This document shows, piece by piece, positions 51,969-52,506 of a DNA stretch of 52,506 nucleotides; positions within the stretch are counted from its first letter, which is position 1, and every line of letters begins with the position of its first letter. The notes under the pieces are model-generated. The model searched no databases and had not been told where the DNA came from. It saw nothing but the letters and a program-made list of their open reading frames with translations. Source of the stretch: a virus (Duplodnaviria; Heunggongvirae; Uroviricota; Caudoviricetes); the IMG/VR virus record IMGVR_UViG_2534681604_000014, positions 1 through 52,506 of that record; one strand, given 5' to 3'. A program made the position numbers and the translations under genes.

Positions 51969-51974
51969 TGAAAC

Positions 51975-52009
51975 CTCGTAGAATCTGGTGTGTTAACCGA
52001 TTCTACGAG
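51975..52009. repeat. 11-bp inverted repeat next to the late-gene start
   Basis: CTCGTAGAATC-(13 nt)-GATTCTACGAG, 7 nt from the ATG at 51968; one arm includes the GAGG of the probable SD. Confidence 0.6.
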
Positions 52010-52175
52010 TAGTCATTTGTCCATTGAGTGGGAATATTGCCGTCTGGGAGCAATATGGTATCATTAAGTTAGAGTAGGTAGTGTAGATGGAATGAGGAGT
52101 ATCATATGGTTATCACACAATCAGGTTGCTTTGAGTCAGGTTGTTTTGAGTAAAACAATAAAACGCCCTTTAATG

Positions 52176-52506
52176 GGTGATGCTGCCAACTTACTGATTT
52201 AGTGTATGATGGTGTTTTTGAGGTGCTCCAGTGGCTTCTGTTTCTATCAGCTGTCCCTCCTGTTCAGCTACTGACGGGGTGGTGCGTAACGGCAAAAGCA
52301 CCGCCGGACATCAGCGCTATCTCTGCTCTCACTGCCGTAAAACATGGCAACTGCAGTTCACTTACACCGCTTCTCAACCCGGTACGCACCAGAAAATCAT
52401 TGATATGGCCATGAATGGCGTTGGATGCCGGGCAACAGCCCGCATTATGGGCGTTGGCCTCAACACGATTTTACGTCACTTAAAAAACTCAGGCCGCAGT
52501 CGGTAA
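52176..52506 (+). mobile_element. IS1 left end (partial, runs off the window)
   Basis: GGTGATGCTGCCAACTTACTGATTTAGTGTATGATGGTG is the IS1 terminal inverted repeat, followed by insA. Confidence 0.95.
52231..52506 (+). CDS. insA: IS1 InsA
   Basis: 91-aa ORF, GTG start, [21 protein letters not shown]...; stop at the window end. Confidence 0.95.

Follow-up and report, generated by a model that had tools for sequence, protein, structure and literature searches.

The right end of the window, by which we mean the whole stretch of 52,506 nucleotides analysed here, is the border of a late operon with the region that holds sim and immI in P1. The final ~6 kb of the window correspond to the P1 tail/baseplate late operon, which runs on the minus strand in the order pmgC-tub-pmgB-sit... 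(Table 1), and its first gene shows 97% DNA identity to P1 pmgC and encodes a product matching PHROG 1851 (PmgC-like, E 4.9e-102). The Shine-Dalgarno GAGG of this gene does not vary in any relative having the LPsit promoter. On the upstream side the window ends in an insertion sequence, and the segment 52176-52506 matches publicly deposited copies of IS1 at 100% identity. The end of the element lies 207 bp from the pmgC ATG, which bears out the placement of an IS1 left end at 52176, about 200 bp upstream of this gene, in an earlier note made on the same DNA, and 157 bp upstream of the -22 box of LPsit. The junction is defined with a 2-nt ambiguity, because the uninterrupted target goes on as GGGCG and IS1 starts with GGTG. 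The same note had pointed to a tandem 15-bp repeat at 52121-52150 and to an 11-bp inverted repeat at 51975-52009, and both are present: TRF (52121-52151, period 15, 2.1 copies, 93% match) and a repeat search agree on the former, and the arms of the latter are perfect and cover the GAG of GAGG.

Table 1. Features at the right end of the window and elsewhere in it, in window coordinates.
Feature	Position	Strand	Description
sit	46410-49802	minus	late operon, P1 tail/baseplate
pmgB	49884-50765	minus	same late operon as sit
tub	50780-51391	minus	same late operon as pmgB and sit
pmgC	51402-51968	minus	188-aa ORF; heads the late operon pmgC-tub-pmgB-sit...
Shine-Dalgarno GAGG of pmgC	51974-51977	minus	5-8 nt upstream of ATG (51968), from sequence reading
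Hairpin 3' arm	51975-51985	minus	GAUUCUACGAG; contains GAG of the Shine-Dalgarno GAGG
Hairpin 5' arm	51999-52009	minus	CUCGUAGAAUC; LPsit spacer CTCG, -10 TAGAAT and 1 nt
LPsit late promoter (putative)	52000-52018	minus	P1 annotation transferred by alignment; identical sequence
23-bp segment	52049-52071		absent from P1 (alignment gap); marks the long spacer allele
Tandem repeat	52121-52150		two 15-bp copies, TCAGGTTGCTTTGAG (52121-52135) and TCAGGTTGTTTTGAG (52136-52150)
Remnant of sim-operon intrinsic terminator	52160-52177	minus	AAAACGCCC-TTTAAT-GGG left; other stem half replaced by IS1
IS1	52176-52506	plus	left inverted repeat through insA stop; window stops within the element
insA	52231-52506	plus	91-aa ORF; PHROG transposase, E 1.9e-55
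LPs late promoter	43758-43740		AAGTTACTT-ATCT-TACAAT; 9+4+6 layout
C1-operator-like site	5166-5182	plus	ATTGCTCTAATAAATTG; immI-like module
isrK	5257-5335		immI-like module; 62 bits
C4 antisense RNA	5380-5467		immI-like module; 77 bits
Small ORF	about 5523-5743		immI-like module

The pmgC-proximal part of the spacer between the two features is occupied by LPsit. In AF234172 (NC_005856) the P1 annotation, itself a prediction, locates this promoter 32-50 bp ahead of pmgC, at 46608-46626, and the 19 bp involved (AAATGACTACTCGTAGAAT) are found base for base in the window, equally far from the pmgC ATG. They consist of a -22 box, AAATGACTA (52018-52010), a spacer CTCG and a -10 element, TAGAAT (52005-52000). 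The -10 element fits TANNNT, the hexamer of Lpa-dependent late promoters of P1, a class activated by Lpa together with host SspA, and the -22 box, an imperfect palindrome set off by a 4-bp spacer, matches the consensus AAGTnACTT at 7 of 9 positions. The resulting 9+4+6 geometry is common to LPsit, LPs and LPdar, all of them annotated as late promoters in P1, and a PHROG search places lpa within the window, at 1946-2398. A loose version of the late-promoter motif is observed 169 times in the whole window, as compared to 141 +/- 13 expected occurrences; this is the level expected by chance, so that only position and orthology lend the motif its meaning. In the 510 P1-like plasmid records analysed, the 52 bp that separate the pmgC ATG from the far edge of the -22 box are 92-100% conserved, and beyond the box the sequences fall into three or more upstream types that bear no relation to one another. 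Since homology ends at the -22 box, the conserved unit extends exactly from this box to the ATG. LPsit can hence be described as a putative Lpa-type promoter that the operon has kept in a form identical to that of P1. Given that initiation at sigma-70-type promoters occurs about 7 nt past the -10, its transcript is predicted to begin at about 51993; no transcript start data for P1 or LPsit were found in the literature reached. The promoter, its distance to the ATG and the operon downstream of it are thus the same in P1 and in the window, whereas upstream of LPsit the window differs from P1 in carrying a long spacer allele and IS1 in place of simC.

The inverted repeat joins this promoter to the ribosome-binding site of pmgC through two arms of 11 nt, 100% complementary and 13 nt apart. 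When the 207-bp spacer was shuffled 20,000 times, a perfect inverted repeat of at least 10 bp with a loop of 3-30 nt appeared in 82 cases, and only about five repeats of at least 10 bp with such a loop are found in the entire 52.5-kb window. According to folding predictions, RNA that reads through from upstream reaches -21.2 kcal/mol (z -6.1 versus shuffles) and leaves the GAG of the Shine-Dalgarno with a probability of being unpaired of 0.02 or less, as opposed to -5.5 kcal/mol (z -0.07) for RNA beginning at the predicted +1. In the predicted late RNA the Shine-Dalgarno pairs weakly with the coding region and its probability of being unpaired is low; this pairing is worth only about -6 kcal/mol, no better than in shuffles. 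The cost of opening positions -13 to +4 was computed for several members of the group. In the window it amounts to 17.4 kcal/mol for read-through RNA versus 6.7 kcal/mol from the predicted +1, in P1 to 17.7 versus 8.2 kcal/mol, and in four relatives from Salmonella, Klebsiella and Enterobacter to 15.6-20.1 versus 4.6-6.0 kcal/mol; in two further relatives, designated here L092 and L104, the difference is small (2.7 kcal/mol). When LPs and LPdar were inspected along with four further good matches to the motif in the window, none was seen to pair its -10 with a Shine-Dalgarno. A search of the spacer for Rfam-type families returned none at gathering score, the best candidate being STnc370, with 29 bits against a threshold of 54.

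Comparison among relatives suggests that the helix is maintained as such. Neither arm shows a single change across 80 IMG/VR loci, in contrast to the -22 box and to several positions of the loop. Where PmgC identity is 74-78%, the relatives have TAAAAT as their -10 and ATTTTA in the 3' arm, instead of the TAGAAT and ATTCTA of the window, which amounts to a compensatory change from G-C to A-U. A Klebsiella aerogenes relative carries ATTTTG in its 3' arm, and the ensuing U-G wobble preserves RNA pairing but not DNA symmetry, which points to RNA as the relevant molecule. The same switch is seen in a second lineage, between TAGAAT/TTCTG in L092 and TAAAAT/TTTTTG in L104, and in this lineage the spacer arm has been rewritten, with GACU paired to AG(G)UC. 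RNAalifold recovers the helix, and its 11 pairs are paired in 95.6% of cells, a figure attained by none of 500 shuffles and to be compared with the 27-44% of slid controls. The covariation involves essentially one base pair, changed in two lineages, with all other pairs invariant. Wider genome and metagenome scans returned relatives mostly at 96% identity or more, or at 61% or less, with about ten informative intermediates, and in the relatives at or below 61% identity pmgC lies directly behind another gene, without promoter or hairpin.

These data bear on the possibility that the hairpin is functionless, its arms being conserved separately as promoter and ribosome site and their complementarity being incidental. 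Most stem positions never vary, and are hence uninformative on pairing, and the clade is closely related, so some room is left for such an explanation. We deem it unlikely, however, for three reasons: the 7 nt of the 3' arm that lie upstream of the Shine-Dalgarno are invariant in the absence of an independent constraint and next to a loop that varies; the pairing partner changes along with position 3 of the -10 in two lineages; and an inverted repeat this long is a rare product of chance, as the shuffles indicate. A somewhat weaker contender is that the inverted repeat constitutes a DNA operator for a dimeric protein, which would sit over the -10 of LPsit and repress or modulate late transcription. 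Perfectly conserved arms that change symmetrically are indeed what a palindromic binding site would display, but the interval between the arms (13 vs 12 nt) and the loop vary, an inner extension CGG/CCG is present in some lineages, the T-G wobble of one relative breaks DNA symmetry and L092 can pair only with a bulge. Half-sites centred 24 bp apart are, moreover, not those of a typical operator, and no candidate binding protein is known. We therefore favour an RNA hairpin, which in folding models occludes the Shine-Dalgarno of pmgC and whose pattern of conservation indicates that it is under selection.

The effect of such a hairpin would depend on where transcription starts. Late transcripts should lack the 5' arm, because this arm is made up of the LPsit spacer and -10. 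The earlier note had proposed that the hairpin hides the Shine-Dalgarno and may gate translation of the first late gene; the predicted folding agrees with the first part of this proposal, and the composition of the 5' arm speaks against the second. Most likely, then, the hairpin would silence read-through transcripts only, and not late ones. In the mechanism that we envisage, transcripts entering from upstream (be it from sim, from other co-oriented genes or, as would now be the case, across IS1) would contain both arms, form the stable hairpin and bury the ribosome site. Lpa-dependent transcripts, starting about 7 nt downstream of the -10, would be devoid of the 5' arm and translatable. The structural operon would in this manner be kept untranslated in the plasmid-prophage state: its proteins would be made from Lpa-started messages alone, and read-through of lysogenic or early origin would yield none. 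Every IS1-free relative has co-oriented genes upstream. P1-type relatives have a terminator at that place, whereas the P7-type ones and those from Salmonella and Enterobacter have none, and the stop of a co-oriented ORF lies there just 8-20 nt ahead of the -22 box. Such a layout would make read-through into pmgC unavoidable and is the very setting in which a lock of this kind would be of use. The lock would also cover the read-through released when IS elements destroy an upstream terminator.

The mechanism just outlined relies on LPsit being the site of late initiation. The opposite view would set the true late start upstream of LPsit and turn the hairpin into a 5' stabiliser of the late mRNA, or into a lock on it that requires an activator. 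This view gains an opening from LPsit being a prediction and from the imperfection of its -22 box, but we consider it very improbable, for the minus strand carries no other late-promoter motif from 52019 to 52175, relatives have unrelated DNA above the -22 box, which in many of them is coding sequence ending 8 nt before the box, and a permanently buried Shine-Dalgarno (17 kcal/mol) on an essential structural gene would call for an unknown factor. As regards the genes found upstream of LPsit, other co-oriented ORFs replace sim in L005 (3059-3535) and in L100-L107 (~465-943), records of P7-type and of Salmonella, Klebsiella and Enterobacter relatives, and some of these ORFs have a YfjT Pfam match.

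The past of the IS1 junction can be traced in IS1-free relatives, in which the insertion point falls inside a minus-strand hairpin, AAAACGCCC-AUUAAA-GGGCGUUUU, followed by a U-run. This hairpin is an intrinsic terminator located just downstream of the co-oriented simC, and it ends the sim operon. In NZ_CP027133 it comprises a 9-bp stem and a U-run (-19.1 kcal/mol, z -4.7); the stem is 7 bp long in P1, and 3 bp of it remain in the window. Along with the terminator stem, the IS1 event removed the genes of sim/immI and also P1-P3pmgC, three predicted promoters of the sigma-70 type annotated in P1 inside or next to simC. The same left junction is shared by NZ_CP148447, NZ_CP104510, NZ_AP027589 and one IMG/VR contig, separate records whose sequences are 98.2-99.7% identical to the window. 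It is a rare junction, linking the sim terminator to a point 30 bp past ant in 3 of 5,426 complete E. coli genomes, and in two of these three IS1 has been extended to an IS1-phytase-like gene-IS1 arrangement. The element found at the identical position measures 768 bp in the records L003 and L007 and 759 bp in L002 (NZ_CP148447.1).

The right end of IS1, which the earlier note had placed beyond the window together with any target-site duplication, was reached in sister records only, and it is from these that the right junction of the window itself is extrapolated. In three of them the left flank (CCTTTAATG) and the right flank (CAGGCATGT) differ and the 9-bp target-site duplication is missing; unlike flanks without a duplication fit a product of deletion or recombination, and not a simple insertion. 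The DNA to the right of IS1 was sought in the window, in P1 and in NZ_CP027133, and it is absent from all three. It has no match in the phage collection and, apart from the sister records, was located only in E. albertii-type plasmids, and in those of them that are free of IS1 the stop codon of ant precedes its start by 30 nt. With respect to NZ_CP027133, about 2.99 kb are missing, comprising sim-like genes, c4, icd and ant. IS1 thus appears to be the scar of an IS1-mediated deletion, or of recombination between IS1 copies, in which ~3 kb were lost, its left junction being seen in the window and its right one in the sister records. Deletion of adjacent DNA and inter-IS1 recombination are classical forms of IS1 behaviour, and the locus conforms to a classical IS1 deletion in its single IS1, its unrelated flanks, the lack of a 9-bp duplication and the disappearance of the neighbouring block. 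In P1-like plasmids the sim/ImmI region ('RD-3') has been documented as a hot-spot for changes brought about by IS elements (PMC6906374), and the genes lost beside IS1 are non-essential for P1 plaque formation (PMC10695390). The presence of IS1 here is in this sense routine, one more IS-mediated loss in the sim/ImmI hot-spot, and the late control region survived it.

That IS1 displaced the promoter of the operon or now drives it, with the hairpin gating pmgC translation on late mRNA, was the suggestion of the earlier note, and we find it highly unlikely: IS1 does lie just 207 bp from the pmgC ATG, and with P1-P3pmgC removed and the terminator destroyed transcription leaving the element could reach pmgC, but the interval 51969-52175 retains an intact late promoter, LPsit, identical to that of P1, a consensus scan of the minus strand detected no sigma-70-like promoter facing out of the IS1 end, and a hairpin whose 5' arm contains the -10 itself would be absent from late transcripts. 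Our reading is that IS1 neither displaced nor supplies the late promoter and left LPsit intact. A candidate hybrid promoter at the IS1 junction was set aside by eye, the TTGGCA of the inverted repeat having no -10 at 16-18 bp.

Several other observations concern the mobile elements of the region. The 759-bp IS1 of NZ_CP148447.1 (4877-5635) owes its length to a 9-bp in-frame internal deletion in insB, and in the same record another transposase-like gene (5830-6930) interrupts the DNA to the right of IS1. The IS1-flanked segment of L003 (5645-8006) carries a gene annotated with 'esterase-like activity of phytase', and in NZ_AP027589.1 an IS3-family element occupies the spacer (~2200-3500), near the equivalent of window position 52050. 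P1 has a resident IS1 of its own, between isaA and isaB, which belongs to the same element family and lies at a different location. No other IS1 end is found in window positions 1-52175, and the isaA-IS1-isaB copy of P1 is absent; this copy is also missing from other P1-like plasmids (PMC6906374).

The remaining stretch of the spacer, between the sim terminator and LPsit, exists in two alleles. The short allele, found in P1, has one 15-bp copy and no 23-bp segment, and the long allele, found in the window and in several IS1-free relatives, has two copies and the 23-bp segment. Since IS1-free relatives carry both copies, the tandem repeat is not linked to IS1, and no function is evident for it.

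Taken as a whole, the locus is best explained by an intact LPsit, an IS1 deletion scar, a hairpin lock acting on read-through transcripts only and a repeat allele independent of IS1, a combination to which we assign a probability of about 0.6. The lock evokes a well-known case. In phage T4, genes e (lysozyme), soc, 49 and I-TevI are transcribed early as long RNAs whose folding hides the ribosome site, and short, translatable transcripts arise from late promoters lying in the 5' strand of the hairpin (PMC3014915). The arrangement at pmgC is similar to that of gene e in that a hairpin would bury the Shine-Dalgarno, a late promoter resides in its 5' arm and co-oriented genes lie upstream, and in that related phages retain promoter and structure alike. 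There are also differences. The T4 promoter is the gp55-dependent TATAAATA, whereas sigma-70 plus Lpa and a -22 box would operate here; in addition, P1-like phages are temperate, so that silencing would be directed at read-through transcripts of lysogenic or early origin. The parallel should be understood as an analogy of mechanism and not as homology, in which the P1 element, known here from computation, works like that of T4. Whether the tail/baseplate operon of P1-family phage-plasmids at large is guarded at its head by a lock in the style of T4 gene e is a proposition on which we see the odds as evenly balanced. No description of a hairpin lock in P1 was found in the literature reached, in a search that did not extend to the paper on the P1 genome (Lobocka et al. 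2004).

We view the locus, accordingly, as composed mostly of ordinary P1-plasmid variation, with the hairpin as its one modestly new point, a probable example of a type of regulation already known. If true, the placement of a promoter inside a hairpin would provide P1, which is both a classic phage model and a widespread backbone of plasmids carrying resistance genes, with a simple and testable post-transcriptional safeguard. It would explain how essential structural genes remain silent in the prophage while located directly downstream of accessory genes expressed in lysogeny, and it would extend a principle documented mainly in lytic phages of the T4 type to a temperate phage with different late promoters. 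For annotators and engineers, the practical consequence would be that deletion or recoding of the pmgC 5' UTR, or the addition of promoters upstream of it, may result in unexpected expression.

The spacer holds further elements on which a more speculative proposal can be built. Just upstream of LPsit, at 52031-52058, lies an imperfect inverted repeat, ATATTGC-N9-GCAATAT, which is dispensable in P1, because half of it sits in the 23-bp segment that P1 lacks. The plus strand contains a promoter-like sequence with an extended -10, TTGCCG-16-TGgTATCAT (52037-52064), a strong Shine-Dalgarno, GAGGAG (52094-52099), and a 15-codon ORF, MVITQSGCFESGCFE (52105-52152), that spans both copies of the tandem repeat; the sole difference between the copies, C/T, is synonymous in this ORF. 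The terminator hairpin that follows the ORF has a T-run on the plus side too in some relatives, and it is cut by IS1 in the window. In the P1 version of this cassette there is no -10, and the ORF stops after 4 codons; a comparison of the cassette with Rfam yielded no family match. The long-allele spacer may speculatively encode a plus-strand mini-gene (52037-52175) made up of promoter, GAGGAG, ORF and bidirectional terminator.

At the other end of the window, between pacB and c1, there is a second immI-like module on the plus strand (5166-6855), which includes an antirepressor of 371 aa that bears ORF6N and KilAC domains. An insertion of ant between pacB and c1 has been reported for RCS47 and pTZ20_1P (PMC6906374), and the module could compensate for the canonical c4-icd-ant lost beside IS1. 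The window itself starts inside phd, and doc then follows at 222-602.
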